Shown here: positions 1 to 54,108 of the stretch, in pieces
Layout: each line of letters opens with the position of its first letter
Numbering within the stretch: the stretch's first letter is position 1
Assembly (NCBI GenBank): GCA_965533305.1
Contig: CBESWV010000001.1
Location: forward strand, 1 to 58,395
Source of the DNA: an uncultured bacterium
Lineage (GTDB): Bacteria; Acidobacteriota; Thermoanaerobaculia; Thermoanaerobaculales; Sulfomarinibacteraceae
Direction of reading: 5' to 3'
Length of the DNA: 58,395 nucleotides
Translations under genes and position numbers: made by a program
The notes under the pieces: generated by a model
What the model was told of the DNA's origin: nothing
Databases searched by the model: none
Seen by the model: the letters and a program-made list of their open reading frames with translations, nothing else

Positions 1-3000
1 GATCTCCTCGGCCTCGAGCGACCGCCGATCAACGCGACCGCGAATCTCGAGCTCGAGGCGAGCTGGCACCCGGATCGACCCGGCGACACTCGAGTGCTTG
101 CCGAGTTTGGGGATCTCCGGCTGCAACATCTCGGGGGCGAATTCACGGCAGAGGAACCGCTCACGGTGCGTGCGTCGGGAGACAGGATCGAAATCGAACC
201 CGTGTCGCTCAGAGGTCCTCAGACGGTGATCAACGCTGAAGGGGGAGTGAATCTCGTCACCGGCGAAATGGATGGATCCATCGACGCGCTTCTGGCCCCA
301 CGGTTTGCTCGAAACATTCCATACCCGGTTCAGATTCACGAACCCATCAGCCTCTCGGCGACCATGGGAGGCAACCTACGGCGCCCGGAGGTTTCACTCT
401 GGGTCAACCACCCCGGAGGCGCCCTCGTTTTTCGGGATCCCCCGCTTCGGATCCGCGATCTGGTGCTCTCGGCGGAATGGGTTGATGGAGCGTTGTGGAT
501 CAACGACGGGCGGGCGAGGGTCAACCAGGGAACCATGGAAATCGGCGGCGGCTGGGACCCCGTTTCACGCCAGGGCGTCGTCGCCGAGTTCGAACATGTG
601 GTCGTCTTTGTCGGCGGCATCCTCAGCCAATGGACGGGGGCGGTCGCCGTCGAACCCGAGCCCGGCCGGATCGCGACCGTGGCCGGCGAACTCAACCTGG
701 TGGCCGGTCTGTGGGATCAGAACGTCAGCCTCGGCGGCGCCCTTTTCGGATCCAGCTCCCTCGAACCGACCATTGATGATCCTTTGAACGATGTCTTCCT
801 CGATCTCGATGTGCGCGGACGCGGTGTCGTCAGGGTCGAGAACAACCTCGGCAGGTTTGATGCCCGCTGGGACGTCCTCCGTGTCACCGGCACCGCGGCG
901 CAACCGAGAATCAAGGGGGAGATCACCATCGCGCCGGGCGGGCGTTTCGCCCTCGCCGGCCAGAAGGTGACGGTGCGACGAGGGAATCTGGTTTTCACCG
1001 GGGACCCGGAAGTGGATCCGATCATCGAGATCGTGCCGGAATCCGACATCGCGGTTTTCGGGGGCTCCGAGGGCGGGCTCAACACCACGACCATGGCGAC
1101 CGAAGCACTGGTCGGCGGGATTGCGGGGGCCCTCGGCTTCGAAAACGAGACCCTGCAACCCGCCGAGATCTCGGTGGAGACCGAAAAGGACTCGGCCGAC
1201 AACTTCCTGTTCGGCCAGAGGGTGAGCCACAACGTGGCGCTTTTCTTCGCCACCAACACCACCGACGTCCAGGATCGGACCTCCATGCTCCAGTTCTGGA
1301 ATCTGCCGGGTCTCAAGGGGCTGGCGTTTCAAGGCTATGAAAAGACGCTAACTAGCGAGGTCGGCGGGAACGTCATCCATCGGTTCCAGTTTGGTGGCTC
1401 GTCGCTCTATGCCGACCGGCCGACCATCCGCAAGTTGAGGCTCAACGGGGAGTGGCCGCTGAGCAAGCGAAAACTCAGGAAATCCACGGGCTTCAGACGG
1501 GGGCAACCGTTCGACCCATTCCTCGAGTTTGTCGCGCGCGTTCGCATGGAACGAACGCTCGCGGCGGCGGGATACCAGGAGGCTCGGGTCCATGCCGAGT
1601 CGGTGGAGTCCAACAACGCCTGGACCCTGAACTTTGAGTGCGAACCGGGCGAACGGCAGGAGATTGTCTTCGAGGGTGATGAGCCTCCACGGCGCATCCG
1701 GGACGAGGTAACGGCGCTCTATCGACACCCGCCGCTCGAGTCATTCGGCTTTCGGAACATGCAGATCCTCCTCGAACGTCACTTCGATGTCGAGGGCTAC
1801 CCCGATGCCTCGATCGTCATCGAACGGCGTGGCGAGGAGGTGGTGGCCGAGATCTCGCCTAAGGGTCTGACTGAACTCAGCGGTCCGTTCCTGGAAGGGG
1901 TGCCGGAGTCGGTTTCCGAGGCGGTCGTGAATCGTCTCGGCAAAGCGAACGAGCTGGCCATCCTGTCCGAGGATGAAGAGCGGGCGATCAGGATGATCGA
2001 GCGGGTCCTCGCCGATCAAGGTTATCGCGAGGCGCGCGTCGAGTCGGTGGAGACCGTGGCCACCAGCGCCGAACGGGCGGAGGTCCGGGCGGTGGTGGAG
2101 CTTGGCCCCCGGGCAGTGGTCGGAGAGTTGATCGTCAGCGGGTCCGATCCTCTCGGTCTCACCGCCGCCGAGGACTTCCCGCTCAGGATCGGAAGTCCCC
2201 TCGATCGCCTGAGCGTCGATCTCGCCGCGAGCCAGGTGCGGGCCGGTTACGACGCCGCCGGGTACTCGGATGCGGTTGTTCGGGGTTCGGCGGAGGAGAT
2301 CCCCGATGGCGGATGGGTGGTGTCGATCTTGATTGAGCCCGGGATTCAGCGGATCCTCGAGGGCGTCGTTGTCAACGGGCTGAAGCACACCAGCCCGCGC
2401 GCGATTGTTTCGGGTGTCTCCATCGAAGAGGGTGAGATTCTGCGCAACTCTGATCTCGATGCGACCGCGGCTCGGATTGCGAATTTCGCTCCCATCGAAA
2501 GAGTCGACGTGCGAACCGTACCGCAGGGCAGCACCGGCGCCAACGTTGAGATCGATGTCATCGAAAAACCGCGCTGGACCACCGAGGTCGGTGGCGGCTG
2601 GAGCTCGGAACGCGGCGCCCAGGCGCGATTCGGCCTGCGCGACGACAATCTCATCGGGCGCGGTTTCGGCCTCAATCTCCGCGGCCGCTGGGACCAGACC
2701 GAGTGGCTCGGTTTCATCGTCGCGTCACTCCCACCCCTGCCCGGCAAGAAGCTGTCGTTCATCTCCACCATCGGCTACTCGAGCGGGGACGCGCCGGAGA
2801 GCCCTGATCTCCTGGCTCAGGACGAAGCCTCATGGAGCATCGATGCGACCCGTCGTGTCGGGAGCGGGCGAAAGGGATCCGCGGGCTACGCCTACGGCGA
2901 CAGCGGGCAGCAGGTCACCGCCTACTATCGTTTCACGACGACCCATGTCTACGAAAAGGTACCCGATCCGGACTTTTTCGTTCCCATCGACAACACCACC

Positions 3001-3594
3001 CGGGTCGGTCTCATCGGTGCGCGCTACGTGCGCGATCGATTCGACTACCCCTTCGACCCGAAATCGGGTCATGGACTACTCCTCGATCTCGGCTACAGCA
3101 ACAACCTCATCGGCTCGGATCTCGACTACTGGACGGGCCTCGGCAACGGATCCGTGGCCTTGGGGGTCTTCGGATCCAGCACCTGGATGCAGAGCCTGCG
3201 GATCGGGGTGGTGGAACCGCTGCACGGAACCAATCTCGATCGGCTAGCGAAGTTCTTCGCCGGGGGTCAGGGTTCGGTCCGTGGTTTCGACCGGAACACG
3301 GTCGGGCCGACCATTCTGGACAGCCCGGTCGGCGGCGGGGCGCTCTTCATTCTCAACGAGGAGCTGCGGATTCCCGTGTGGGGGACCTTCAGGGCCGCGG
3401 TCTTCGCCGATGTCGGTCAGGTGTGGGAGAGCTGGGGCCACGCCAACATCCACATGTCGGTGGGGGTCGGAATCGGTGTGCGTTGGGCGACTCCGGTGGG
3501 ACCCCTGTGGGCCGATATCGCCTGGCCGGTAGTCAACACCGGGATCAGCTCAACCAAACCAAAGTTCTACGTCGGGATCGGGAGGCCGTTCTAG
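1..3594 (+). CDS. TamB-like (DUF490-type) C-terminal module fused in frame to POTRA repeats and an Omp85 (TamA/BamA-type) beta-barrel; 5' end cut by the window edge
   Basis: Frame 1 is open from nt 1; the track ORF 94..3594 only begins at an internal GTG. Around nt 850-1390 there are TamB C-terminus-like motifs (VTGTAAQPRIKGEITI, RGNLVFTGDPEVDPIIEIV, LFGQRVSHNVALFF). About nt 1420-2570 encodes repeated POTRA-like units. About nt 2570-3594 encodes a surface-antigen barrel ending in the OMP beta-signal FYVGIGRPF. Confidence 0.8.
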   Translation, partial: DLLGLERPPINATANLELEASWHPDRPGDTRVLAEFGDLRLQHLGGEFTAEEPLTVRASGDRIEIEPVSLRGPQTVINAEGGVNLVTGEMDGSIDALLAPRFARNIPYPVQIHEPISLSATMGGNLRRPEVSLWVNHPGGALVFRDPPLRIRDLVLSAEWVDGALWINDGRARVNQGTMEIGGGWDPVSRQGVVAEFEHVVVFVGGILSQWTGAVAVEPEPGRIATVAGELNLVAGLWDQNVSLGGALFGSSSLEPTIDDPLNDVFLDLDVRGRGVVRVENNLGRFDARWDVLRVTGTAAQPRIKGEITIAPGGRFALAGQKVTVRRGNLVFTGDPEVDPIIEIVPESDIAVFGGSEGGLNTTTMATEALVGGIAGALGFENETLQPAEISVETEKDSADNFLFGQRVSHNVALFFATNTTDVQDRTSMLQFWNLPGLKGLAFQGYEKTLTSEVGGNVIHRFQFGGSSLYADRPTIRKLRLNGEWPLSKRKLRKSTGFRRGQPFDPFLEFVARVRMERTLAAAGYQEARVHAESVESNNAWTLNFECEPGERQEIVFEGDEPPRRIRDEVTALYRHPPLESFGFRNMQILLERHFDVEGYPDASIVIERRGEEVVAEISPKGLTELSGPFLEGVPESVSEAVVNRLGKANELAILSEDEERAIRMIERVLADQGYREARVESVETVATSAERAEVRAVVELGPRAVVGELIVSGSDPLGLTAAEDFPLRIGSPLDRLSVDLAASQVRAGYDAAGYSDAVVRGSAEEIPDGGWVVSILIEPGIQRILEGVVVNGLKHTSPRAIVSGVSIEEGEILRNSDLDATAARIANFAPIERVDVRTVPQGSTGANVEIDVIEKPRWTTEVGGGWSSERGAQARFGLRDDNLIGRGFGLNLRGRWDQTEWLGFIVASLPPLPGKKLSFISTIGYSSGDAPESPDLLAQDEASWSIDATRRVGSGRKGSAGYAYGDSGQQVTAYYRFTTTHVYEKVPDPDFFVPIDNTTRVGLIGARYVRDRFDYPFDPKSGHGLLLDLGYSNNLIGSDLDYWTGLGNGSVALGVFGSSTWMQSLRIGVVEPLHGTNLDRLAKFFAGGQGSVRGFDRNTVGPTILDSPVGGGALFILNEELRIPVWGTFRAAVFADVGQVWESWGHANIHMSVGVGIGVRWATPVGPLWADIAWPVVNTGISSTKPKFYVGIGRPF

Positions 3595-3618
3595 ATGGTC
3601 GGCCGGCGGAGTTACGCC

Positions 3619-4404
3619 CTATTTTCTCGTCGCGAGAAGGGCTTTGGCGGTCTTGGCTTCCGGTGAGTTCGGCGCCAGCTTGACGAACTGATCGAGATCG
3701 ATGAGGAAGTTGTCCTTCCGGCCGAGTTTGTCCCAGGCAAGCCCACGATAGAAATAGAGATGTGCGTATCTCGGGTCCAATTCGTGGACGGAGTCAAAGC
3801 TCTTCTTGGCTGCTTCCCAGTTCTTCTGGATGAGAAAGGTGAGCCCGATCTGGAAATCGACCATGGGTTTGTCAAAGCCGTACTTTGCAGCCTTCTTCAG
3901 CGCCTTTCGCGCTTCAACGGCATTTTTTTGGCGGACTTTGGAGGCGCCGAGATAAAATTGGGCTCGCGCGTCCCTGGAGTTTTTCGCCACCTGTGCTTTG
4001 GCTCGGTTGAGGGCATTCTGCCAGGCGGCTCTGGCCTTGTCGGATTCACCCACCCACTTGAGCACCTCTCCACGGTAGAACTCCGACACGGGATCACCCG
4101 GGTCCTTCTTGGACTGTTTGTCGAGAATCGCGAGGCCCTTCTTGACCGTCGCCTCGTCCTGCCCGATGCCGAAGGTTGCCATCAAGAGCGCCTCTGCGGT
4201 CAACCACGGCTGGGAATTTTCGAACTTCAGGTTTTTCTTGAGGATGGACTCCGCAGTCTTCGGTCGCCATGCCACGGATTTCGAAATGGCACGGTCGCGA
4301 ACCCGCTCCGCTCCGGCCTGGGGAGCATCCGCAGCCTGCGAGGGAGCCACCACCAGAGCAGCGAATATGATCGACAGCGCAACCCTCAGCGTCTTCCAAG
4401 TCAT
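3619..4404 (-). CDS. Secreted TPR-repeat protein
   Basis: ATG at 4404 with a GGGAGG RBS upstream. N-terminal signal peptide (ALVVAPSQA/AD). Lys/Ala-rich helical repeats with TPR-like spacing (YFYRGLAWDKLGR, EFYRGEVLKWVGE). Confidence 0.7.
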   Translation of the reverse strand: MTWKTLRVALSIIFAALVVAPSQAADAPQAGAERVRDRAISKSVAWRPKTAESILKKNLKFENSQPWLTAEALLMATFGIGQDEATVKKGLAILDKQSKKDPGDPVSEFYRGEVLKWVGESDKARAAWQNALNRAKAQVAKNSRDARAQFYLGASKVRQKNAVEARKALKKAAKYGFDKPMVDFQIGLTFLIQKNWEAAKKSFDSVHELDPRYAHLYFYRGLAWDKLGRKDNFLIDLDQFVKLAPNSPEAKTAKALLATRK

Positions 4405-4583
4405 TCTCGACCTCCCGGTCCATAGTCCTGTCGGTCATGATGCCACAGACCGCGGTGATTTCCGACGAGGTTTTTCAGATGGTCACGACAGACCCGAGCG
4501 GATGATCGCCATCCACTTCGGCGCAAACAACCGACCGTGGGTGGAGATTGAGATTTCCTGCTAGGCTCCATAACCGGAGTTTC

Positions 4584-5909
4584 ATGGTCACAGAAACGCG
4601 TCGCGCGCGAATCTTTTCCCTTGCCCTGCCGATCATCGGCGGGATGGTTTCACAGAACGTGCTCAACCTGGTGGACACGGCGATGGTGGGGGTCCTCGGG
4701 GCGGCGGCCCTGGCCGCGGTCGGGATGGCGAGCTTCGCCAACTTCATGGCATCCGCTTTCATCACCGGTCTTTCCGCCGGTGTCCAGGCCGTCGCGGCTC
4801 GGCGACTTGGCGAGGGACGTACGGAAATGATCGCGCGTCCGCTGAACGGAGGGTTGCTTCTCGCGGTGGTCATCGCCATCCCGCTCTCCGCGGTCCTGGT
4901 CGTCTTTGCGGATGACGTCTTTGCGATGTTGGTGGAGGACCCGGATGTGGTGGGGCTCGGAGTTCCCTATTTTCGGGCCCGGCTCGCGGCCATGGCGGCT
5001 CTCGGGGTCAACTTCGCCTTCCGCGGGTATTGGAACGGCGTCAACATGTCCAAGATCTACATGCGGACCCTGCTGGTCATGCATGGATCCAACATCGTTC
5101 TCAACTGGGCGTTGATCTTCGGTCACTTCGGCCTGCCCGCCCTTGGGGTGGCCGGCGCAGGTATCGGCTCGGCCATCGCGACCTTCATCGGGTCCGCCCT
5201 GTATTTCTACCAGGGATGGAAGCTCGCTCGGTCCAACGGATTCCTGCGGGGCCTTCCCGACCGCGAGACCTTGCTGACCATGCTCCGACTGTCGATCCCG
5301 ACCGGGATCCAACAGTTCTTTTTTGCCGCGGGATTGACCGGGTTCTTCTGGATTCTCGGAAGGGTTGGGACCGCGGAATTGGCCGCCTCGAACGTCCTGG
5401 TCCAGCTTCTTCTGGTGGCGATTCTCCCGGGTCTCGGATCCGGCATGGCGGCGGCATCCCTGGTGAGTCAGGCGTTGGGGAGGAAAGAGCCGGACGACGC
5501 CATGGCCTGGGGCTGGGATGTCGCCAAGCTCGCCACCATCGGGGTCGGTCTCATGGCCCTTCTCGGTCTCTTTTTTCCGGACCTGCTGCTGCGACCGTTT
5601 CTGCACGACGAGCAGACCCTCGCCCTGGCCCGTTTGCCCCTGAGGTTTCTCGCGGCAACCATGAGTTTGGACACCCTCGGAATGGTCCTGATGAACGCCC
5701 TCCTCGGCGCCGGGGACAACCTCAGAGTGATGGCGGTGACGCTGGTGTTTCAGTGGGTGATCTTTCTGCCGGTGGCTTATGTCATCGGACCGGTTCTGGG
5801 TTTCGGCATGACCGGGGTCTGGCTCGCGCACATCGGCTACCGGTCGATTCAGGCGGTGGTTTTTCTGCTCATCTGGCGGTCGGGCTCCTGGGCCAAGATC
5901 CAGGTCTGA
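4584..5909 (+). CDS. MATE family multidrug/toxin efflux transporter
   Basis: Polytopic membrane protein with the MATE N-terminal signature (LALPIIGGMVSQNVLNLVDTAMVG). The ATG at 4584 (MVTETRR) is preferred over the non-ATG track start at 4548. Confidence 0.85.
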   Translation: MVTETRRARIFSLALPIIGGMVSQNVLNLVDTAMVGVLGAAALAAVGMASFANFMASAFITGLSAGVQAVAARRLGEGRTEMIARPLNGGLLLAVVIAIPLSAVLVVFADDVFAMLVEDPDVVGLGVPYFRARLAAMAALGVNFAFRGYWNGVNMSKIYMRTLLVMHGSNIVLNWALIFGHFGLPALGVAGAGIGSAIATFIGSALYFYQGWKLARSNGFLRGLPDRETLLTMLRLSIPTGIQQFFFAAGLTGFFWILGRVGTAELAASNVLVQLLLVAILPGLGSGMAAASLVSQALGRKEPDDAMAWGWDVAKLATIGVGLMALLGLFFPDLLLRPFLHDEQTLALARLPLRFLAATMSLDTLGMVLMNALLGAGDNLRVMAVTLVFQWVIFLPVAYVIGPVLGFGMTGVWLAHIGYRSIQAVVFLLIWRSGSWAKIQV

Positions 5910-8013: not shown

Positions 8014-8030
8014 CGAGGGTGGCGTTCCGT

Positions 8031-8203
8031 CACAACCACGAAGGCACGAAGACGCAAAGCATCGCACACGAAGCTGCCGATTCTGAGGCGCCGAAAGACC
8101 CCGGTCGAGGAGAGAGTCCTTCCCACGGCCTCCGGGTCTATCGGCGCCTCAGAATCGGCAGGACTTTGTGACCTCTTGGCGTCTTGGTGTCTTGGTGGTT
8201 GCG
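8031..8203. repeat. Long imperfect inverted-repeat (hairpin) element, copy A
   Basis: Perfect 21-nt inverted repeat: ctgccgattctgaggcgccga at 8074-8094 and its exact reverse complement at 8141-8161. Outer arms at 8031-8073 and 8162-8203 are made of CACGAAG/CGCAAAG-type units and are about 75-80 percent complementary by hand alignment. Confidence 0.85.
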
Positions 8204-8252
8204 ACGAATCGAATTGCCCGAATCGGCGCGATCGTGATTCAATAGCTCGCCT

Positions 8253-9896
8253 ATGAACAAATCGGTCAATATCGCAAATGCGGTCAGCGACATGGCGCAA
8301 CGCCAGCCGGAGGCCACGGCGGTTGTCTGCCCCTGGGGTCGCCGAGGCGGCTCGCTGACCTATGGTGAACTCGAAAACCGGACCTCAGCGGTGGCTGCCG
8401 GTCTCGAATCGGCTGGAATCGGCCGAGGGGTCCGGACGGTTCTGATGGTTCCTCCGGGGCTGGATCTTTTTGTCCTCGCATTCGGACTCTTCAAGGTCGG
8501 GGCGGTGCCGGTCCTGGTGGATCCCGGGATCGGTCTGCACCACCTCAAGGCGTGTCTCGGAAACGCCCGGCCGGAGGCCTTTATCGGAGTGCCCAAGGCG
8601 CAGGCCGCCCGGGTCATTCTCGGATGGGCCAGGGAGAGCGTTCGCACCACGGTCACGGTCGGCCCGAGGTATTTCTGGGGCGGCCACAGTATGCGCAAGC
8701 TCGAAAAGCGTGGTCTCGATGCCGGAGGCAGGGGTGTGGCTGATACCGCCGCCGATGAGATGGCGGCCATCGTCTTCACCTCGGGAAGCACCGGTCCGCC
8801 CAAGGGCGTGGTCTACCGCCACGGGAACTTCGCCGCCCAGATCGAAGCGGTCCGCGGGGTCCTCGATTGCGGTCCGGGTGATGTGGATCTGCCCACCTTT
8901 CCGCTCTTCTCGCTCTTTGATCCCGCGCTCGGGATGACGACGATCATCCCCGACATGGATCCGACCCGGCCGGCGAAGGTCGATCCGGCGAAGATCATCG
9001 GTCCCATCCACGAGTTCGGCGTCACCACCATGTTCGGATCGCCGGCGTTGCTGGATACCGTGGGGCGGTATGGAGTCGAGCATGACATTCAGTTGCCGAC
9101 GCTCAGGCAGGTCGTGTCCGCCGGTGCACCGGTGGCGCCGAGAATCATCGAACGATTCGTCTCGCTCATGGCCCCGGGAGGCCGGGTTCTGACCCCCTAC
9201 GGCGCCACCGAATCGCTGCCGGTCGCGGTCAACTCGAGCGATGTGATCCTCGGCGAAACCCGCGCCGCAACCGATCGCGGCGCCGGGACCTGCGTCGGAT
9301 CACCGGTGCCGTCCATCGAAGCGGCCATCATCGGGATCGAGGATGGCCCCATCGCGGATTGGAGCGATGCTCTCAAGCGACCGGTCGGCGAGGTCGGAGA
9401 GATCGTCGTCAAGGGGCCGCAGGTCACTCACGAGTACTTCGCAACCGAGAAACACAATCGGCTCGGGAAGATCCGCGATGGCGAGAGTGTGCGCCACCGG
9501 ATGGGGGATCTCGGTTACTTTGACGAGCAGGGGAGGCTCTGGTTCTGCGGCAGGATGTCGCAGCGTGTGATCACCGTCAACGAAACGCTCTTCACGGTTC
9601 CCTGTGAGAGTATTTTCAACACCCATGCTGATGTCTATCGCAGCGCGTTGGTCTCTGCCGATGTCGACGGCAAGATCGTGCCGGTGATCTGCATTGAGGC
9701 CGAACCCGGCGTCAAACCCGCTGATCACGAACGGGTTCGGACCGAACTCCTGGAACTCGGCTCCGGGTTCGACCACACCGAGAACATCCGGACTGTGCTG
9801 TTCCACCCGTCGTTCCCGGTTGATATCCGCCACAACGTCAAGATCGGTCGCCGCGAGCTCGGTCAGTGGGCCACGGCGCAACTTCGGAGGGGCTGA
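8253..9896 (+). CDS. oleC: OleC-type AMP-dependent synthetase (beta-lactone synthetase)
   Basis: Acyl-AMP ligase motifs (IVFTSGSTGPPKGV, TPYGATE, GDLGYFDEQGRLWFCGR). Third position in the ole gene order. Its stop TGA at 9894-9896 overlaps the next start. Confidence 0.8.
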   Translation: MNKSVNIANAVSDMAQRQPEATAVVCPWGRRGGSLTYGELENRTSAVAAGLESAGIGRGVRTVLMVPPGLDLFVLAFGLFKVGAVPVLVDPGIGLHHLKACLGNARPEAFIGVPKAQAARVILGWARESVRTTVTVGPRYFWGGHSMRKLEKRGLDAGGRGVADTAADEMAAIVFTSGSTGPPKGVVYRHGNFAAQIEAVRGVLDCGPGDVDLPTFPLFSLFDPALGMTTIIPDMDPTRPAKVDPAKIIGPIHEFGVTTMFGSPALLDTVGRYGVEHDIQLPTLRQVVSAGAPVAPRIIERFVSLMAPGGRVLTPYGATESLPVAVNSSDVILGETRAATDRGAGTCVGSPVPSIEAAIIGIEDGPIADWSDALKRPVGEVGEIVVKGPQVTHEYFATEKHNRLGKIRDGESVRHRMGDLGYFDEQGRLWFCGRMSQRVITVNETLFTVPCESIFNTHADVYRSALVSADVDGKIVPVICIEAEPGVKPADHERVRTELLELGSGFDHTENIRTVLFHPSFPVDIRHNVKIGRRELGQWATAQLRRG

Positions 9897-10900
9897 TGCG
9901 TTCCCTGGTGACCGGTGGTGGAGGATTCCTCGGCGGCGCCATCGTTCGTCGCCTCCTCAGCGGCGGGGACAGCGTTCGAACCGTTCAGCGCGGGGACTAC
10001 CCTGAACTCGGCGCCCTGGGCGTCGAGTGCATCCGGGGCGATATTGCCGACCCGGAGATCGTCGATCTCGCCGTCGCCGGGTGTGATCGGGTTTTTCACG
10101 TTGCCGCCAAGGTCGAGATGTGGGGGCCACGAGAACCCTTTCGGCTCGCCAACGTGGTGGGAACCGAGAATCTTCTGCAATCCATGCGCCGTCATGAAGT
10201 TCGCAAGCTCGTCTTCACGAGTTCTCCAAGCGTGGTCCACGGCGGCGAAAATATCGAAGGCGCCACGGAGACGCTGCCGTACCCGGATCAATTCGAGGCG
10301 GCCTACCCTGAGACCAAGGCCGAAGCAGAGCGTCTGGTCCTTGCCGCAAACTCGGCTGAATTCTCGACGGTCGCCCTGAGGCCGCACCTTATTTGGGGAC
10401 CTGAAGACACCAATCTGGTGCCGACCATTGTCGACCGCGCCCGGACCGGGCAGCTTCGACTGGTAGGGGATGGATCGAACCTCATCGATACCGTCTACAT
10501 CGACAACGCCGTGGATGCGCACGTCCTCGCCGCCGAACGTCTGGGGCCGGACTCGGCCTGCTCGGGGCGGGCCTATTTCATCACCAATGACGACCCGAGA
10601 CCGATTCGAGAGATCATCAACGGCTTCGTGACAGCTGCCGGACTCCCTCCTGTCGAGAAAACCATCTCGGTAGGAATGGCCGTCGCCGCCGGGAGGATCT
10701 TTGAGGCGATTCACCGTATTTTTCCATCACCGTCCGGACCCCGGATGACCCCGTTTCTCGCCCGCCACCTCTCGACGGCGCACTGGTACGACATCTCGGC
10801 CGCCAAGAGGGATCTCGGGTATGAGGCCACGGTGGGGATCGATGAGGGTATGGTGCGGTTGAGGCAGTGGTTTCAATCATCCGCAGGGGGGTCCGCATGA
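9896..10900 (+). CDS. oleD: OleD-type NAD(P)H-dependent reductase (3-beta-HSD/epimerase family)
   Basis: Rossmann motif VTGGGGFLGGAI and a 3-beta-hydroxysteroid dehydrogenase-like body. ATG 9896 overlaps the oleC stop by 1 nt (TGATG). Confidence 0.8.
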   Translation: MRSLVTGGGGFLGGAIVRRLLSGGDSVRTVQRGDYPELGALGVECIRGDIADPEIVDLAVAGCDRVFHVAAKVEMWGPREPFRLANVVGTENLLQSMRRHEVRKLVFTSSPSVVHGGENIEGATETLPYPDQFEAAYPETKAEAERLVLAANSAEFSTVALRPHLIWGPEDTNLVPTIVDRARTGQLRLVGDGSNLIDTVYIDNAVDAHVLAAERLGPDSACSGRAYFITNDDPRPIREIINGFVTAAGLPPVEKTISVGMAVAAGRIFEAIHRIFPSPSGPRMTPFLARHLSTAHWYDISAAKRDLGYEATVGIDEGMVRLRQWFQSSAGGSA

Positions 10901-12515: not shown

Positions 12516-12536
12516 ATTCAGCCAATCGATCGATTC

Positions 12537-12568
12537 AAGCCCCCCCTTCGCGGGGGGCTTTATTTGTT
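12537..12568 (+). terminator. Rho-independent terminator after mdh
   Basis: GC stem aagccccccc / ggggggctt with a ttcg-type loop, followed by tatttgttg, about 20 nt after the mdh stop. Confidence 0.65.
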
Positions 12569-14206: not shown

Positions 14207-14626
14207 CTAGCCGACCGCGACCGGGTGCAGGTGCTTCTCGATGGTCTCGATGAGCTTGCCGAAGTCCGGCGGTTTGGTGTGGAAGCCCTCCACATCGACC
14301 CAGCTTTTTTCGAGCCGAGAACGGACCTCGAAGACCCGATTGACCCCGGTCAGCATGACGATGGGAATGTCGGATGTCTCGGGGTTCTTTTTGAGGGTGG
14401 CCGCGAGATCATAGCCCTCGGAAGGGTAGGTGAGCATGACATCGAGAAGGATGAGGTCGGGGCGCTTTGCCATGAGACTGGCCATGGCCTCTTCGCCATC
14501 GGCCGCTCTACGGACCTCATAGCGGGTTGCCAAAACCGCGGTCATGGCATCGACAAAAACCGGATCGTCATCGACCAGAAGTATCGTGTGTTGTGCCACG
14601 AGGTCATTATAACCAGGCCAATTCAA
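14207..14626 (-). CDS. Stand-alone response-regulator receiver domain
   Basis: REC motifs ILLVDDD, DLILLDVML and PIVMLTG, with no output domain. The track start at 14626 is TTG. An in-frame GTG at 14599 (giving MAQHTILLVDDD) looks more natural. Confidence 0.85.
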   Translation of the reverse strand: MNWPGYNDLVAQHTILLVDDDPVFVDAMTAVLATRYEVRRAADGEEAMASLMAKRPDLILLDVMLTYPSEGYDLAATLKKNPETSDIPIVMLTGVNRVFEVRSRLEKSWVDVEGFHTKPPDFGKLIETIEKHLHPVAVG

Positions 14627-14634
14627 ATTATGAA
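14606..14634 (-). promoter_or_regulatory. Candidate sigma70-type promoter for the receiver gene
   Basis: On the minus strand: TTCATA (14634-14629), a 17-nt spacer, TATAAT (14611-14606), then 6 nt to GTG 14599. This would give a leaderless or near-leaderless mRNA. The -35 lies inside the heptad repeat array. Confidence 0.3.
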
Positions 14635-14850
14635 TTATGAATTATGAATTTTGAATGACAGCAGCTCCGCCTGGCGCTCCTGAGCAGCCACGGTCTGGTT
14701 TCGACGTGTTTTTGCGTGTTTGCTCTGATCGATGTTCGGAAGCATCGACGAGCCCGCTTTTCTCACACAGAAACCCAGCGGCGTCGCGGCACCCCATCGA
14801 AGTCTTGCGATGCAATTCATAACTCATAATTCATAATTCAGAATTGAGTA
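14621..14850. repeat. Inverted arrays of five AT-rich heptads flanking a 160-nt core, copy B
   Basis: 14621-14655 reads attcaaa ttatgaa ttatgaa ttatgaa ttttgaa. 14816-14850 reads ttcataa ctcataa ttcataa ttcagaa ttgagta, the reverse-complement orientation. It is strikingly AT-rich against GC-rich surroundings. Confidence 0.85.
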
Positions 14851-18271: not shown

Positions 18272-19486
18272 ATGAGAGAAAGAGTCGTACTTGCCGTCGT
18301 CATCGGTTTCTGCCTGATCGGGTCCGCCTGCGCTCCGGAGCCCGTGGTGGGTGTGCTGATCCCGCAGACCGGACCCGCCGAGGCCTACGGCCACGCGGTC
18401 AACAACGGAATTCGTCTGGCTTTGAACGAGGCGCGGGCATCGAACACCCTGCCCGAGAATTTTCAGCTCATCGAGGCAGACACCGGCTCGCGCCCCGACT
18501 TCGCGGCCGACGAACTCCGGCGTCTTGCCTCGACTCTCGATGTCAAATTAGTCGTCGCAGGGGTGACCACTGATGAGGCCCTCGCGCTTCTGCCGGTGGT
18601 CGAGGACGAAAAGGTCGTGTGTCTCTCGCCGTCGGCGTCGGCGAGCAGCCTGACCGGCAAAAGTCCATACTTCTTCCGGCTCTTCGCCACCGACGAGGTT
18701 GAAGGAAGCACCGCCGCACGCTATCTCCACGAAACCCAATCCGCCCGCTCAGTTCTGGTGATCACCGATGATTCGACCTTCTCACGGGGGCTCGAGGCCG
18801 AGTTCCGTCAGCACTATCAGCTCCGGCTCGGTGGCGAAATCGTGGCGACGATCCACAACGAACTCGAGTGGTGGAAACGCAAGGCAACCGATATGGTCAA
18901 CGCCCATGAACCCGACGCGGTCTATATCGTCGGGCACGCCGAACACATCCTGACCAGCCTCGAACTGCTCAGCGATATCGGCTATGAGGGTGTGAAATGC
19001 ACAACCTCGGCGGTCTATCTCGCCGAACTCCTCGAACAGGGGAACCCGGCCCTGGAGGGTGTTTTCTTTCCGCTCGCCGCCTTGCGAACCTGCGAACAGG
19101 AAACCGACAACGCTCGTGAATGCCCGTTCGTCGACCGATACAAGGACGAATTCGGGGGCCAACCGGATTTCTATGCGGCCCACGGCTATGACGCCATGCG
19201 AGTTGCACTCCGAGCTCTCGTGGATGCACGTTCGGTCGATGTCAGCGAGCTGCGTCGATACATGCGGGTCGGTCTTCAGGAGTTCGATGGCGTGACGGGT
19301 ACCATTGCCTTCGATGAGCGGGGGGATGTCCGGCGCTACCCGACCATGCACACCATCTGGAACGGTCGGGTGGTGAAGTGCCGATGGCTCCGCGATATGA
19401 AAAAACTCCAGTTCAAGCAGCTCATCGAGGGGATCACTCCGACGAGGGCTCAACCACCCGCACCGGTCCTCCGGCTGGAAGTTTAA
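18272..19486 (+). CDS. Periplasmic binding lipoprotein, type-1 PBP (Leu/Ile/Val-binding-protein family)
   Basis: GGAGG RBS then ATG 18272. Lipobox LIGSAC, then GVLIPQTGPAEAYGHAVNNGIRLALNEA. The upstream part of the track ORF (17882-18271) overlaps the tricorn gene and is rejected. Confidence 0.75.
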   Translation: MRERVVLAVVIGFCLIGSACAPEPVVGVLIPQTGPAEAYGHAVNNGIRLALNEARASNTLPENFQLIEADTGSRPDFAADELRRLASTLDVKLVVAGVTTDEALALLPVVEDEKVVCLSPSASASSLTGKSPYFFRLFATDEVEGSTAARYLHETQSARSVLVITDDSTFSRGLEAEFRQHYQLRLGGEIVATIHNELEWWKRKATDMVNAHEPDAVYIVGHAEHILTSLELLSDIGYEGVKCTTSAVYLAELLEQGNPALEGVFFPLAALRTCEQETDNARECPFVDRYKDEFGGQPDFYAAHGYDAMRVALRALVDARSVDVSELRRYMRVGLQEFDGVTGTIAFDERGDVRRYPTMHTIWNGRVVKCRWLRDMKKLQFKQLIEGITPTRAQPPAPVLRLEV

Positions 19487-19566
19487 GCGAAGGTCGTGAA
19501 TCGTGAGTTGGTAGCCTGAGCGATCGACGACTCCGTACGACGGTGCTCGTGACCTCGGTGCCATCT

Positions 19567-20004
19567 TTGAAACACGAAGGGCACAAAGTTCCACGAAGAT
19601 CGACACAAAGCGTCGCATTTGAAAGTAGGATCTCGGTCCCGGAGTGACATTCAACTCCGTGGATCGGTCGGTGAATCTTCAGCGAATTGTTTGAAACGCA
19701 ATGACCGCAAAGATCGCAAAGACCATCGCAACGAACGCAACATGATCCACCGCAAGGAAGGGTGGCATCTGCAGGCGCCCTCCTTGTGTTCAGTCCTGGA
19801 TTGGATGATGCGATGGGTCAACCATGCGATGTCCTTTGCGATGGTCTTTGCGATCTTAGCGGTCGTTGCGGTAGAACTGCGATGGAGGCCGAGGATTTAG
19901 AGATTACTGAACGAAGCCGATTACTTCCCCGGCAGCGGTGACCCATTTTCAATTGCGATGCTTCGTGAAATCCTTGGTGGATCTTCGTGCTCTTTGTGTT
20001 TCAA
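19567..20004. repeat. Nested long inverted-repeat element, copy C
   Basis: Outer arms 19567-19623 / 19947-20004 match 44 of 57 positions by hand. The inner arms contain a perfect 20-nt inverted repeat at 19712-19731 / 19836-19855. 19823-19855 is the exact reverse complement of 48451-48483. Confidence 0.9.
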
Positions 20005-20105
20005 TCACGCCCTCGCGGCAGCCTCGACCGAAGAACGAAGTCTCGGGTCACTCCGGATACCGCCGACTCACGACCGCCGACGCGCCGTGGTAATCTTCGC
20101 CGGTT

Positions 20106-48312: not shown

Positions 48313-48427
48313 GCTGCCGGGGGGAGTAGTCGCAAAATGGGCTGAAGTTTTCAACGACAGGACCATTCCCAAGCTCATCATCCCTTGGCTCGTCGAGAGT
48401 GAGGTCTCCTGGCCAAGAACCCATCAC

Positions 48428-48668
48428 AGTTTTACCGCAAAGACCGCGATGATCGCAAAGACCATCGCAAAGGACATCGCATGATTGAGCCATCGCACCA
48501 TCGCGGGAGCTCATCGAGGGTCGAGCACTCAGGTTCGCTGAAACGAATCACTCAGAGAGGTCTTTCTTCAAGCCGGATGCCACCATCCGACTCCTGTTGC
48601 GATGACTTCTTGAAATGGTCTCTTTGCGATGGCCATAGCGGTCGTAGCGTTCTTTGCGGTGAAACTGC
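48428..48668. repeat. Long imperfect inverted-repeat element, copy D
   Basis: Arms at about 48428-48505 and 48596-48668 are built from CGCAAAG units. 48451-48483 (gatcgcaaagaccatcgcaaaggacatcgcatg) is identical to the reverse complement of 19823-19855. Confidence 0.9.
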
Positions 48669-48703
48669 AGTGGGAATGTGCGATGACACTCTGGCGCAGC
48701 CCT

Positions 48704-49684
48704 CTAACCGATGGTCAATACGACCTTGCCGAAGGCTTCTCCCGAGGCCAACCGTCGGTGGGCATCCGCAACACGATTCATTGGGAAAACGCTGTCGATG
48801 ACCGGCCGGAGTCTTCCGGCCTGCAGGGCATCGCCGAATCGGTCGAGGAACGAACTCACGATCTCGGCCTTGCGCTCGAGGCTGAGCGCCCGCAGGGTCG
48901 ATCCGATGATCCGAATCCGTTTTGACAGCAACCGGCGCAGATCGAGGTCGCCCGTCATTCCGCCCATGAGACCGATCACCACCAGCCGCCCCTCGGTTGT
49001 CAGCACCTTCAGATTCTTCTCCAGATACGGTCCGCCGATACAGTCGAGAACGACATCGACCCCGCGCGTCTCGGTGGCTTCCAGGCAAACGCTCTCGAAA
49101 TCCCGGTCGCGGTAGTTGAGGGCGAGATCGGCGCCGAGTTCGGTGCAGCGACGACAGCGGTCATCGGAGCCGGCCGTCACGAAGACGCGTGCTCCTGCAT
49201 TCTTCACGAGTTGAATCGCCGCGGTTCCGACTCCGCCCGATCCGCCGTGGACGAGGGCCGTTCCGCCGGTTTTCAACCCACCGAGCATGAAGAGGTTGAG
49301 ATACGCCGTGAGATAGACCTCCGGGAACGCGCCGGCCTCCTGATCAGAAAAGACCTCCGGCACCGGGAGCAGTGATCCCCGATCGATTACCGCCTCCTGA
49401 GCCTGGCCCCCCCCGGCGACGAGCGCCATGACACGGCCGCCCGCCTCGAGACTGGTCACTTCAGAGCCGAGTTCAGTGATCGATCCCGAACACTCGAGTC
49501 CGAGGATGTCCGAAATTCCGGGAGGTGGAGGATACAGACCACGGCGTTGCAGGAGATCTGCGCGGTTGAGCCCCGCCGCACCGACCGCCATTCGAATCGA
49601 ACCTGATCTCAGCTCCGGAGAGACACGATCTTCAATCCGAAGCACACTTTCGTCACCATGATCGCTGCAAACCACGCTTTTCAT
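48704..49684 (-). CDS. qor: NADPH:quinone oxidoreductase (zeta-crystallin-type MDR)
   Basis: ATG 49684 (MKSVVCSDHG). Motifs: GLNRADLLQRRGLYPPPPG, ALVHGGSGGVGTAAIQL. The 5' part of the track ORF (49685-51193) is antisense to two real genes and is rejected. Confidence 0.85.
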   Translation of the reverse strand: MKSVVCSDHGDESVLRIEDRVSPELRSGSIRMAVGAAGLNRADLLQRRGLYPPPPGISDILGLECSGSITELGSEVTSLEAGGRVMALVAGGGQAQEAVIDRGSLLPVPEVFSDQEAGAFPEVYLTAYLNLFMLGGLKTGGTALVHGGSGGVGTAAIQLVKNAGARVFVTAGSDDRCRRCTELGADLALNYRDRDFESVCLEATETRGVDVVLDCIGGPYLEKNLKVLTTEGRLVVIGLMGGMTGDLDLRRLLSKRIRIIGSTLRALSLERKAEIVSSFLDRFGDALQAGRLRPVIDSVFPMNRVADAHRRLASGEAFGKVVLTIG

Positions 49685-49704
49685 ACACGGAGCATAGCCC
49701 AGGT

Positions 49705-49758
49705 ACAATTCAGCCTGCCGACGACCCGCCGCGAACGGCAGTCTGCAGGCTGAATTGT
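49705..49758. promoter_or_regulatory. 14-bp perfect inverted repeat in the divergent qor/aminopeptidase intergenic region (candidate operator or 5'-UTR hairpin)
   Basis: acaattcagcctgc at 49705-49718 and gcaggctgaattgt at 49745-49758, 26 nt apart, with an inner ctgccg/cggcag pair at 49715-49720 / 49736-49741. Confidence 0.3.
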
Positions 49759-49768
49759 GGAGGCTTGA

Positions 49769-50953
49769 ATGATCGATCAGCGTGATCTCGAAACTTGGGC
49801 AGGGTTCCTTCTCGAACATTCCGTGGGCGGCGTCGTTCCCGGAGACCGGGTCATGATCAAAGGGGAGCCGGTTTGTTGGCCGCTCATGGCGGTGCTTGAA
49901 AGAAAGACCATCGAAGCGGGGGCCGTGCCCGATATCTGTCTCGTCGCCCCCAACAACGATCGTGGTCGGGTGTGGTCGGCGGCCATGGGCCGGGCGGCCT
50001 CGCCCGAGCAGCTCGCAAAGGTCCCGGACTGGCACCGTGAGCGATATGAAAGCATGACCAAGTACATCGAGATCCTCGGAGGCGAGGATCCGAGCCAGTA
50101 CATGGGACTCGATCCGGAACAATCCCAGGCCCTCGCTGCGGCCGATCGTCCCTATTCCAACATCCGTCTGTCGAAACCCTGGGTCATCACTCTTTATCCG
50201 ACACCGGCTTTCGCCGCGCTCGAGGGGATGACCGTCGAGGAGTTCGAGGACTTTATTGTCGGCGCTTCGACGGTGGATCCGAGGCCCTTGCGAGAGGCTG
50301 AAGAGCGGATCGCGCCGTTGTTGGACGACGGCTCCGAGATCACGATTGCCACGAGACACCCGCGTCAGGACCGAGAACTGGTGTTGCAGATGGGGATATC
50401 CCAGGGCCACGCTGCGCTCTCCTACGGCCTGCGGAATTTTCCCGACGGAGAAGTCTTCACGAGCCCCGATGCATCCAGCGTCGAGGGTGAGATCTTCATC
50501 GATCTGCCGATCAACTCCGGCGGCAACGACATTTCCGGGATCTACCTCAGGTTTGAAGGCGGAAAGATCGTCGAGTATCGAGCCGATGAGGGCCACGAAC
50601 ACCTGACGACGATCATCGAAACCGACGACGGTTCCCACCGGCTCGGCGAGGTGGCGCTCGGGATGAACCCGGGCCTCGATCGCGTACTCAAACACCCACT
50701 CTTTGTCGAGAAGGTCGGGGGCACCCTTCACATCGCTATCGGCGCCAGTTATGAACACTGCTATGTCGAAGATCCCGGCTCTGATGAGGGGCGCGAGCGG
50801 ATCGCCCAGCTGGAAGCCGACGGAGTGCTCAATCGCTCGGCCCAACACGTGGATATTGTCACCGATTTCCGACCCGGAGGGTGCGGCGTCTCGGTTCACA
50901 TCGACGGCGTCGAGCTGGTGCCGCGCGATGGGGTCTGGGTGGCCGCCGGCTGA
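49769..50953 (+). CDS. M29-family aminopeptidase (AmpS/PepS/aminopeptidase T type)
   Basis: GGAGG RBS then ATG 49769. M29-like segments (FPDGEVFTSP, LGEVALGMNPG, GGTLHIAIG). Confidence 0.85.
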   Translation: MIDQRDLETWAGFLLEHSVGGVVPGDRVMIKGEPVCWPLMAVLERKTIEAGAVPDICLVAPNNDRGRVWSAAMGRAASPEQLAKVPDWHRERYESMTKYIEILGGEDPSQYMGLDPEQSQALAAADRPYSNIRLSKPWVITLYPTPAFAALEGMTVEEFEDFIVGASTVDPRPLREAEERIAPLLDDGSEITIATRHPRQDRELVLQMGISQGHAALSYGLRNFPDGEVFTSPDASSVEGEIFIDLPINSGGNDISGIYLRFEGGKIVEYRADEGHEHLTTIIETDDGSHRLGEVALGMNPGLDRVLKHPLFVEKVGGTLHIAIGASYEHCYVEDPGSDEGRERIAQLEADGVLNRSAQHVDIVTDFRPGGCGVSVHIDGVELVPRDGVWVAAG

Positions 50954-51062
50954 GTCGTTTCGAGGTCCGAGTCCGTATACGTTTCGGCAGCGTCGGAATC
51001 TGCGGCGCTTTCCAGGCGTTCGAGGCATCGAGGGCGCACCGTCGCTCAACATTGGAGTCAAG

Positions 51063-52223
51063 ATGGCAACCGACAGTTCCAACCCGTCCACCACCGAGGG
51101 TGGATTGCGTGATCTCACTTCGATCACCCCACCCAATATCTTCAAGGAACTCCAGAAGGGGGTCCTCGGGCAGAGCACATCGCTGCGATACACCTCGGTC
51201 GCGGTCTACAAGCACACGACCGGGAAGGTCCCGGGAAACATCCTGCTTATCGGCAACTCGGGAACCGGCAAGACAACCATCATGAACAACATCCAGCGGA
51301 TGTACCACGAGGTTGAAGAGTACCGCCCGTTCAGAGCGATGACCATCATCAATGCAAACCTCTTGGTGGACGCGGAACGCCTCGAGTTTCAACCGGCGAG
51401 ACTCCTCACCGCCGTTGAGCAACGCGCCCGCGCGCTCGTCGGAGAGAAGCCGACAGCCGAGGAACTCGTCGCCACGATGGAACGGGCCACCGTCTGTATC
51501 GATGAGATCGACAAGATGTCATCCATCGTCGCCGGAAAACCCAATGCCATCGGGGTTGTTCTCCAGCAGGGCCTCCTGACCCTCATGGAAGGGGAGGTGG
51601 TGGCCCACCGCGCCCACGTCTGGGAGGACGGTGAAGAGCGCGAGGTCATCCTCTCCGTTGATACCCGCCGCATGATGTTCATCTGCGGCGGGGCTTTCGA
51701 GGGTCTGTATGACCAGGTTTACCTCAGAGTGATCAAACCGGGCAGCGGTGAGAAACTCAAATCGCAGGCGATCCAGACCGCCGACGGGCAGGTCAGGATC
51801 GAGAGCCGATTTGCAATCAGTGATTTTCTCAAGCCCGAAGACCTCTTCGAATACGGGATGGTGCCGCAGTTCATGGCCCGGTTTGACGACGTCGTCCTGC
51901 TTCGGGATCTCGACACATCGGTGCTCAAAGAAATCCTTCTGATATCGGTCGATTCGCCGTTCCTGCGCTCGAAGCGCTACTTCGAGGTCCTCGGTATCAA
52001 CCTCGAGATGGAGGATGTCGCTGCCGGGATGATTGCCGAAGAGGCGGCCAAGAGCACTCGAACCGGAGCACGCGCACTGCGGACGGTCTTCGGCCGGATC
52101 ATCAACCCGCTCGAGTTCGACCCGTGGACCTTTGAAGGACTCGAGGACGACCCCGGGGGCGGAAAACGACTGCTGATTTCCACGGAGATGGTGCAACGAG
52201 TCATCGCCGGCCGGAGGAGTTGA
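51063..52223 (+). CDS. ClpX-family AAA+ ATPase paralogue lacking the zinc-binding domain, pore-1 loop and IGF loop
   Basis: GGAG RBS then ATG 51063. Walker A GNSGTGKT and Walker B VCIDEIDK. ClpX-like FICGGAF, GMVPQFMARFD and sensor GARALRTV. DAERLEFQ sits where ClpX has GYVGEDVE. Confidence 0.8.
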   Translation: MATDSSNPSTTEGGLRDLTSITPPNIFKELQKGVLGQSTSLRYTSVAVYKHTTGKVPGNILLIGNSGTGKTTIMNNIQRMYHEVEEYRPFRAMTIINANLLVDAERLEFQPARLLTAVEQRARALVGEKPTAEELVATMERATVCIDEIDKMSSIVAGKPNAIGVVLQQGLLTLMEGEVVAHRAHVWEDGEEREVILSVDTRRMMFICGGAFEGLYDQVYLRVIKPGSGEKLKSQAIQTADGQVRIESRFAISDFLKPEDLFEYGMVPQFMARFDDVVLLRDLDTSVLKEILLISVDSPFLRSKRYFEVLGINLEMEDVAAGMIAEEAAKSTRTGARALRTVFGRIINPLEFDPWTFEGLEDDPGGGKRLLISTEMVQRVIAGRRS

Positions 52224-53500: not shown

Positions 53501-53877
<377 letters not shown>

Positions 53878-54108
53878 AATTTTTGGCCCGTGGTGCCCGG
53901 CGCCACGGGCCAATGTTGCTGAAAAGGGTTTAACCTGAGATCAGCGATTCTCACCGGCGATCTGCACCAAGCTCTTGGGCTCTGGATATTTGCGAAAATG
54001 CTCGGAATACCAACGGGTATGCCTGCGCTTTTCGCAAGCACCAGAGTCACAAGCCCTTGGCACATCTCATCCGGCAGAACCGCTCGTCTTAGGTTATTGT
54101 TGGTTTGC

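Follow-up and report, generated by a model that had tools for sequence, protein, structure and literature searches.

A nested palindrome in front of phnD belongs to a modular, probably mobile family of intergenic repeats in Acidobacteriota

In the genome of an uncultured acidobacterium of the family Sulfomarinibacteraceae, a gap of 619 nt (19487-20105) separates the stop codon of a gene for a Peripla_BP_6 binding protein (at 19486) from the start of a gene for a PhnD-family (Phosphonate-bd) protein (at 20106), with ABC ATPase and permease genes lying downstream of phnD. Coordinates refer to the 58,395-nt stretch of contig CBESWV010000001.1 (assembly GCA_965533305.1) that was analyzed as a whole and is called the window below. 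Almost the entire gap is taken up by a nested imperfect palindrome, and we favor, with a probability of about 0.6, the explanation that 19487-20087 is a non-coding, nested selfish repeat resembling foldback elements, MITEs (miniature inverted-repeat transposable elements) and REPINs, and that it belongs to a modular family in the intergenic DNA of Thermoanaerobaculales-like Acidobacteriota. The element is better taken for a member of a repeat family than for a gene or a regulatory switch; the family as such is probably mobile and "junk-like".

The anatomy of the element is palindromic and modular, with four concentric layers that can be distinguished. The outermost layer pairs 19487-19566 with 20005-20090 (58% complementary) and carries RRTCGTG units at 19492-19507 (GGTCGTGAATCGTGAG) and at 20064-20075 (CGACTCACGACC); its right part, as a feature, covers 20005-20087 and includes the end of the strain-variable segment described below. 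Inside it lie the outer arms, 19567-19623 and 19947-20004, which match at 44 of 57 positions without gaps, exactly as the original prediction had counted, and at 46 of 59 (78%) with gaps. The left outer arm is a module that we call M2, on the plus strand, made of TTGAAA, CACGAAG, CACAAAG, CACGAAG, CACAAAG, TCGCA and TTTGAA, with its heptamers spaced 9-12 nt apart, and the right outer arm is an inverted M2 (minus strand) with TGCGATG and CTTCGTG/CTTTGTG units and GTTTCAA at its end. The "middle" layer (19624-19696 / 19871-19946) is 51% complementary; its left unit at 19624-19689 (plus strand) is free of heptamers and shows 51% complementarity to the right unit at 19886-19946 (minus strand). A 64-nt loop separates the inner arms (19697-19751 / 19816-19870), which are 80% complementary and contain a perfect inverted 20-mer at 19712-19731 / 19836-19855. 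Read as modules, the inner left arm (19690-19753, plus strand) is a degenerate copy of an 83-nt module, M1, composed of CGCAAAG arrays and CATCGCA (38.8 bits), the inner right arm (19804-19885, minus strand) is a near-consensus M1 (78.8 bits), and the central loop between them occupies 19754-19803.

Folded as single-stranded RNA, the gap forms one hairpin that spans its whole length, at -291 kcal/mol for the plus strand (z -7.6) and -278 kcal/mol for the minus strand (z -8.3), and on neither strand did any shuffle equal the real sequence. The earlier description of two concentric inverted repeats with a perfect 20-nt core and arms built as heptamer arrays is correct, and the structure is larger than described, having the additional RRTCGTG layer and a fold that takes in the whole gap. 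On the right, the element is bounded by an extended -10-like motif, TGnTAATCT (TGGTAATCT, 20088-20096, plus strand), which lies outside it, is kept in all seven relatives compared below, and, judged by its letters, is probably the phnD promoter, of the extended -10 type that would do without a -35 box. A promoter and terminator consensus scan of the phnD locus returned nothing convincing inside the element.

Three further loci in the window belong with this one. The stretch 19823-19855, within the inner right arm, is the exact reverse complement of 48451-48483, a match reached by 0 of 100 shuffles; in its extended form it covers 74 of 82 positions, and the shorter extension previously put at 57 of 62 gave 56 of 62 on that span. 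The whole inner right arm is 90% identical to 48421-48502, which lies in the second family member (48420-48690, plus strand), situated between convergent genes and consisting of M1 at 48421-48503, a conserved loop and an inverted variant, M1', at 48596-48673. The third member (8023-8211) has CACGAAG/CGCAAAG and CATCGCA units in its left arm (8030-8073) and CTTGGTG units in its right arm (8163-8205), enclosing a 28-bp inner hairpin (CTGCCGATTCTGAGGCGCCGAAAGACCC ...; 8074-8101 / 8134-8161, 96% complementary); no homologs of this inner hairpin (8074-8161) were found among the fetched loci. The fourth locus (14626-14845) carries inverted AATTATG arrays (14626-14656 / 14814-14845) and a TGCGATG unit at 14806. 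Each of these four elements occupies one of the window's four largest true intergenic gaps.

The original prediction had all four loci built from CRCRAAG units. This is so at 8.0, 19.6-20.0 and 48.4 kb, and CRCRAAG clusters occur in the window only at 8037-8067, 19573-19604, 19961-19992 and 48436-48466; the 14.6 kb locus uses AATTATG heptamers and shares with the others a common grammar. That grammar reads heptamer array, one or more CATCGCA, loop, one or more TGCGATG, complementary array, so that the unifying signature is CATCGCA/TGCGATG beside heptamer arrays of variable sequence. All four loci share CATCGCA in the left and TGCGATG in the right arm, including the AT-rich one at 14.6 kb, which we place with the other three because its TGCGATG unit abuts its inverted heptamer arrays. 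Fourteen of the 23 occurrences of the signature in the window fall inside the four elements, which make up 2.5% of the sequence (~0.18 expected, a roughly 80-fold enrichment). Where relatives have their counterpart of the 14.6 kb site, other AT-rich heptamers (GAATTTT, AGTTTTT) are present, and these arrays directly adjoin CATCGCAAAG or (CATCGCAC)n units. Tandem Repeats Finder reported arrays of period 7-12 at 8174, 14626, 14814, 19697, 19825 and 48452; most heptamer units are separated by 1-5 variable bases, and strictly tandem units are confined to the AATTATG arrays.

The family extends well beyond the window. The pattern CGCAAAG-N(0-5)-CGCAAAG-N(0-5)-CATCGCA matched at least 119 metagenome loci, and in ~35 of these matches (an estimate by eye), all on G+C-rich contigs, a dense cluster of complementary motifs was present 130-500 nt downstream and hardly ever upstream. 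Counts of the heptamer and CATCGCA motifs around each match likewise placed the inverted partner cluster on the downstream side in most loci. Four pattern matches came from viral contigs, none of which fits the M1 profile. The exact 20-mer GATCGCAAAGACCATCGCAA was too specific a probe: in a genome collection it gave six single matches, five of them chance matches in coding DNA of unrelated taxa, where they encode FAMVFAI-like membrane helices, and the sole true relative was a metagenome-assembled genome (MAG) of an acidobacterium (L003). The 83-nt M1 profile, derived from the 48.4 kb element's left arm (CCATCGCAGTTTCACCGCAAAGAnCGCnAAGAnCGCAAAGACCATCGCAAAGGACATCGCATnATTGAnCCATCGCACCATCG) and run against the window and the fetched contigs, gave 113 matches in 71 sequences, 37 of them near full length; the window itself holds four copies (48421-48503, 19885-19804, 48673-48596 and 19690-19753). 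Adjacent M1 copies were arranged as plus then minus in 21 pairs versus minus then plus in 2.

The modules are directional, each with one or two CATCGCA, a short TT(G/T)AA(A/C)C-like linker and three to six heptamers at 8-12 nt spacing. They stand head-to-head around a loop, with CRCRAAG arrays on the 5' side and CTTYGYG arrays on the 3' side, and such doublets can nest. Depending on the array, the heptamer is CACGAAG, CGCAAAG, CACAGAG, CGCAGAG, CACGGAT, CGCAGAT, RRRTCGT or AATTATG. Two other identities for the module ends were considered and dismissed since the linker varies from module to module (GTTTCAC, ATTGAAC, GATTTAA, GGGTTGAAA), namely split parS half-sites for the GTTTCAC ... GTGAAAC ends and ends of CRISPR repeats for the ATTGAAAC linkers. 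The M1 modules are non-coding, because homologous copies, which also vary in spacing, differ by insertions and deletions of 1-2 nt that break any reading frame. Decay of former genes was ruled out as their origin, the copies being always intergenic and devoid of protein similarity.

Near-identical copies lie in unrelated contexts. Full-length homologs of 48420-48673 were present in the contigs L058 (91% identical), L018 (89%), L039 (88%) and L114 (83%), all with unrelated flanks, and they retain both the non-repetitive loop and the distinct right-arm variant; since the M1 and M1' arm variants are each conserved across these copies, the doublet was copied as a whole. The 19.6 kb element's outer arm and middle unit (19566-19735) recur at 75-78% identity in L018 (at 9530-9699, for M2 with the left middle unit) and in L058, beside elements of the 48.4 kb type, and AATTATG arrays are found in both of these contigs as well, which argues that modules have been shuffled into different composites. 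With modules in 71 sequences, copies of 88-91% identity in unrelated flanks and a polymorphic insertion site, the view of a dispersed family rather than a local palindrome holds.

Close strains differ in the presence, absence and replacement of elements. We compared the orthologous phnD locus in seven relatives, the PhnD homologs (88-100% identical) coming from metagenomes and from MAGs, of which the named ones are Thermoanaerobaculales and Acidobacteriota. In L012, with a 100% identical PhnD and flanking DNA of 97.1% and 98.6% identity, 57 nt stand opposite 634 nt of the window (19449-20082). The site is also empty in L007 (PhnD 96%), where a short CCTTGCGCGCTTGCGGTTGATTCA remnant is left, and in L008 (95%), so that the check for empty sites yielded three relatives without the element. 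Near-identical strains lack it, which shows that the operon of phnD can do without it. In L009 (PhnD 92%), L010 (94%) and the metagenome contig L098 the site is taken by another member, 650-740 nt long, with arrays of CACAGAG, CGCAGAG and CGCAAAG and CATCGCACCATCGCA units. L009 and L010 hold this same element, arms included, in opposite orientations between identical flanking genes, reflecting either independent insertions or an in-situ inversion between the long inverted arms. An invertible promoter switch (inverton) would have inverted repeats around a segment that occurs in both orientations, with an invertase close by; here there is no recombinase gene nearby, and no promoter consensus was found. 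In L011 the site has a 200-nt element made of RRRTCGT heptamers. Because this is the unit type of the outermost layer in the window, the arrangement suggests that the window element is a newer composite nested in an older one.

The right end of the variable zone always falls at a block that is conserved in all seven relatives and contains TGnTAATCT, and its left end lies at or just before the stop codon of the binding-protein gene. The last ~12 codons of that gene (19449-19486 in the window) are hypervariable, with the rest at least 97% identical between strains. More generally, the elements are confined to a zone, probably a neutral one, that runs from a stop codon (or terminator) to the promoter that follows. 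Among 22 elements classifiable from crude calls of open reading frames (ORFs), 10 lay between convergent, 9 between co-directional and 3 between divergent genes. REP-like elements are tolerated at the 3' ends of genes and avoided in promoter regions, and our 22 elements follow the same positional pattern.

The same confinement and turnover were seen at other sites. The gap between the Ldh and S41-peptidase genes measures 105 nt in the window, 864 nt in L010 and 450-540 nt in L009, L011 and L008. An intrinsic terminator hairpin after the Ldh gene (GCCCCCCCTTCGCGGGGGGCTTTATTT, 12530-12565 in the window) is kept in L008-L011, each of which has a different family member in this gap, always 3' of the terminator; in the window the gap is empty. 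The spacer between the convergent S41 and response-regulator genes measures 17 nt in the window and 66 nt in L009, where it is just a terminator hairpin; in L010 it has 832 nt and in L011 644 nt. L010 contains three copies (993-1721, 3392-4118 and 9352-9941) of an element of ~740 nt that are 75-85% identical over their full length and sit at sites empty in the window; these copies of ~600-740 nt span 10 kb of a single 16-kb contig. Arrays also change in unit number, related copies differing by whole units of 8-9 nt. Pure signature arrays, (CATCGCAGT)x6 at 400-451 of L011 and (CATCGCAC)x5 at ~11020-11065 of L018, were observed adjoining AT-rich heptamer arrays. As a separate observation, synteny with L007 is broken at 614-5273 of that contig, where genes for an SSF transporter, a MarR regulator, a radical-SAM/LAM enzyme and an acetyltransferase sit between the response regulator and a tricorn-like protease; they are absent from this place in the window and the other relatives.

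If the family is mobile, doublets or single modules would be copied in trans to new sites by some enzyme, for which the invariant CATCGCA is a candidate recognition site. A single-strand transposase of the HUH/Y1 type would fit both the dependence on hairpins and the lack of target-site duplications. Arrays would grow and shrink through slipped-strand mispairing, and family members would form mosaics through recombination, with insertion of some into the loops of older copies. On read-through from the upstream gene, the element would fold into a long RNA hairpin, possibly acting as a stabilizer of the 3' end or as an insulator.

Several observations weigh against the interpretation as a mobile selfish repeat. 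Target-site duplications, for which the original prediction had proposed a check, did not appear at the examined junctions, and neither they nor clean boundaries emerged from comparisons of filled with empty sites or from a comparison of the 48.4 kb element across its five copies; as the boundaries are fuzzy, short duplications may have escaped notice. Pfam scans of the ~45 ORFs of the window yielded no transposase, RAYT, integrase or reverse transcriptase, in agreement with the earlier reading. All-against-all BLASTP of the ORFs from those of the 119 fetched metagenome contigs that have at least 55% G+C brought up no recurrent neighbor protein, the recurring ORFs beside the repeats being generic kinases, GGDEF-EAL proteins and ABC transporters, and no parent autonomous insertion sequence with the same termini was seen in ~0.9 Mb of fetched sequence. 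The inspected part of the source genome amounts to 58 kb. The difference between L012 and the window also takes in the final 38 nt of the gene upstream, and since the variable tract starts inside the hypervariable 3' end of the binding-protein gene, it may represent allelic replacement by recombination instead of a fresh insertion. Finally, compensatory changes, likewise anticipated by the original prediction, are lacking: there was no covariation between paired arms, with partner arms 74.9% identical versus 75.3 +/- 1.2% for shuffled partners (1209 of 2000 shuffles at or above the observed value).

Of the options that had been left standing, MITE-like DNA is favored, a structured RNA is weakened and a fixed protein-binding array is unlikely. 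The best surviving alternative, to which we assign a low probability, takes the elements for cis-acting structured RNAs (3'-UTR stabilizers, terminators, RNase III targets or a phnD 5' leader) in which the long hairpin is under selection. The very stable fold, the position of the elements behind stop codons and their enrichment between convergent genes agree with this, and among 10 co-directional cases picked by hand the sense strand folded better than the antisense strand, by minimum free energy, in 8. The bias came to 6 of 9 in a set gathered automatically and was not significant there (Wilcoxon p = 0.25), and transcription-coupled mutation bias could be the source of such a trend. Only the doublet, as at 48.4 kb, folds (z -5.4); a single arm has no advantage over its shuffles (z +0.30, +1.61 and +1.17). 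As partner arms are no more alike than the arms of different elements, selection for the hairpin is unsupported; the five 48.4 kb copies, which are too similar to be informative, show double changes in 2 of 74 predicted pairs. Searches of Rfam with the window elements and those of relatives, at the gathering threshold and at E<=10, returned no family, only spurious miRNA-like hairpins. The empty Rfam search, the missing inter-arm covariation and the absence of a clear strand bias together weaken the structured-RNA explanation, against which also stand the strains that have the same operon without the element and the absence of promoter or terminator consensus within it.

One member deserves separate description here. 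In the ~740-nt type (three copies in L010, 9302-9951 of L009, and L098), a center of ~450 nt shows strong conservation and many hairpins, one of them near-perfect and 63 nt long. By eye, some positions of this central hairpin are changed on both of its arms when L010 is compared with L098, which speaks for the structured-RNA alternative, and the center could be a structured RNA cargo. A comparison of the ~740-nt member with Rfam gave no match.

Slightly less probable still is that a DNA-binding protein (a regulator, a nucleoid-associated protein, or a factor for partition or uptake) recognizes the elements as arrays of sites, with the sites brought onto one face of the helix by the 8-12 nt period. 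The distance of 9-12 nt between units, the strong enrichment of the invariant CATCGCA within the elements, and conservation of the module sequence rather than of the pairing between arms are what one would expect of such arrays, and CATCGCA itself could be a protein site. Against this, the heptamer differs from array to array, so that no single heptamer can be the binding site; because it varies so freely, a fixed protein-binding array is unlikely. The number and spacing of units vary too, and the elements are dispensable between strains.

We consider it improbable to a further degree that the palindromes arose locally, by slippage and template switching at each intergenic site with no transfer between sites. 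Arrays that change by whole units, the lack of target-site duplications and the different arrays of different relatives at one site are compatible with such an origin, which is largely refuted by full-length copies of 245-740 nt with non-repetitive loops, 75-91% identical at unrelated sites, and by the separate conservation of the M1 and M1' variants across the 48.4 kb copies. Least credible of all is that these are small, divergent genes encoding hydrophobic peptides in the manner of type I toxins, such as MMRWVNHAMSFAMVFAILAVVAVELRWRPRI read from 19804: similar short hydrophobic ORFs do appear by eye in the M1 modules at 19804-19899 (plus) and 48421-48498 (minus), but their "MVRW" start is a mere translation of the TGCGATGGTGCGATG motif, homologous modules are separated by frame-breaking indels of 1-2 nt, and 1 of 8 differences between the two window copies is synonymous (by eye).

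Returning to the selfish repeat, we compared it with known systems. By analogy, it appears functionally most like REPIN/BIME and MITEs, and its architecture seems closest to that of Foldback and BOX elements. The REP/REPIN/BIME elements of Proteobacteria, mobilized by RAYT proteins of the Y1 type, are likewise extragenic, located behind genes, free of target-site duplications, abundant and variable between strains, and they too consist of directional units in inverted doublets and larger mosaics. The inverted doublet as a unit was found here in the pair order (21 versus 2) and in the whole 48.4 kb doublet that is conserved across contigs. A REP unit, in contrast, is a self-complementary hairpin of 20-40 nt, whereas the units here are of ~57-83 nt, do not fold by themselves (z +0.3 to +1.6) and contain tandem heptamers, and the family is, as had been claimed, larger and more repetitive than REP/REPIN. 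The foot of the REP hairpin bears a conserved terminal GTAG or CGTC tetranucleotide, and RAYT-associated REPs do exist in Acidobacteria, in the class Terriglobia (PMC3733652). We noticed no terminal hairpin tagged with GTAG or CGTC on reading the module ends (CATCGCA, TTGAAAC-like linkers), no explicit count of the two tags having been made.

Bacterial MITEs (Correia/NEMIS, ERIC, RUP, Nezha) are also non-coding, dispersed and insertion-polymorphic and have long imperfect terminal inverted repeats, as do our elements of 190-740 nt. Here the terminal inverted repeats are represented by arms of 78-80% complementarity and by the mirrored ends of the 48.4 kb element, and the elements are small, do not code for protein, exist in multiple dispersed copies and show insertion polymorphism. 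They differ from MITEs in that neither a target-site duplication nor a parent insertion sequence was found, the arms are internally repetitive and variable in length, and the elements nest. With no self-folding tagged unit, the family is not REP in the strict sense, and with no target-site duplication or parent insertion sequence it is not a classical MITE.

The BOX elements of Streptococcus pneumoniae are composed of the modules boxA, boxB and boxC, of 45-59 nt and unrelated in sequence. Like our family, they are modular, with a variable number of internal units, intergenic and stably folded, but they have no heptamer arrays and do not nest. Cyanobacterial short tandemly repeated repetitive (STRR) heptamers and the small dispersed repeats of Nostoc were reportedly described by Mazel in 1990 and Elhai in 2008. 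STRR sequences are also intergenic tandem heptanucleotide arrays with several sequence classes per genome; they come from another phylum and have other sequences, and we do not know the inverted pairing of arrays as arms punctuated by CATCGCA to be a described STRR feature. Eukaryotic Foldback (FB) transposons would be the closest architectural analogue, with long inverted arms of short tandem sub-repeats, variable arm lengths and differing loops. FB elements are much larger, some with coding loops, and there is no evolutionary link.

Literature searches for the motifs and for repeats of acidobacteria turned up no description of a CATCGCA/heptamer family, and the repeats are apparently undescribed. 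Tentatively, they could be taken further, as an undescribed superfamily of bacterial "foldback" elements with heptamer arms punctuated by CATCGCA, nested in one another's loops, holding a large share of the intergenic DNA of Thermoanaerobaculia and propagated without target-site duplications or a transposase acting on terminal inverted repeats. Such a superfamily would possibly depend on a new hairpin- or CATCGCA-specific enzyme, and it might have a host-level role in insulating or stabilizing transcripts.

Two features of the window lie outside the repeats. A full-length bacterial RNase P class A RNA at 53503-53879 (plus strand, 297.6 bits) is its only Rfam family. At 48704-52223 there are conflicting long ORFs, an 829-aa one on the minus strand with alcohol-dehydrogenase domains only in its C-terminal third, and a 506-aa one on the plus strand (50703-52223, AAA ATPase domains) that overlaps the 5' part of the former.

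REP, REPIN, BOX and Correia repeats shape genome plasticity and mRNA stability and serve in strain typing. To our knowledge, almost all known small-repeat families come from cultured Proteobacteria, Firmicutes and cyanobacteria. Here, in a poorly known acidobacterial lineage, most of it uncultured, intergenic space is filled by repeats that are built differently, from heptamer arms, an invariant 7-nt signature and nesting. For the assembly and annotation of MAGs this carries a warning, since assemblies break at such loci, which also give rise to spurious small ORFs and vary among strains that are identical elsewhere. The CATCGCA signature and the 83-nt M1 profile provide a handle for finding the mobilizing enzyme. 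What has been found is no new principle of biology but a very dynamic repeat family, in a phylum that has received little study.

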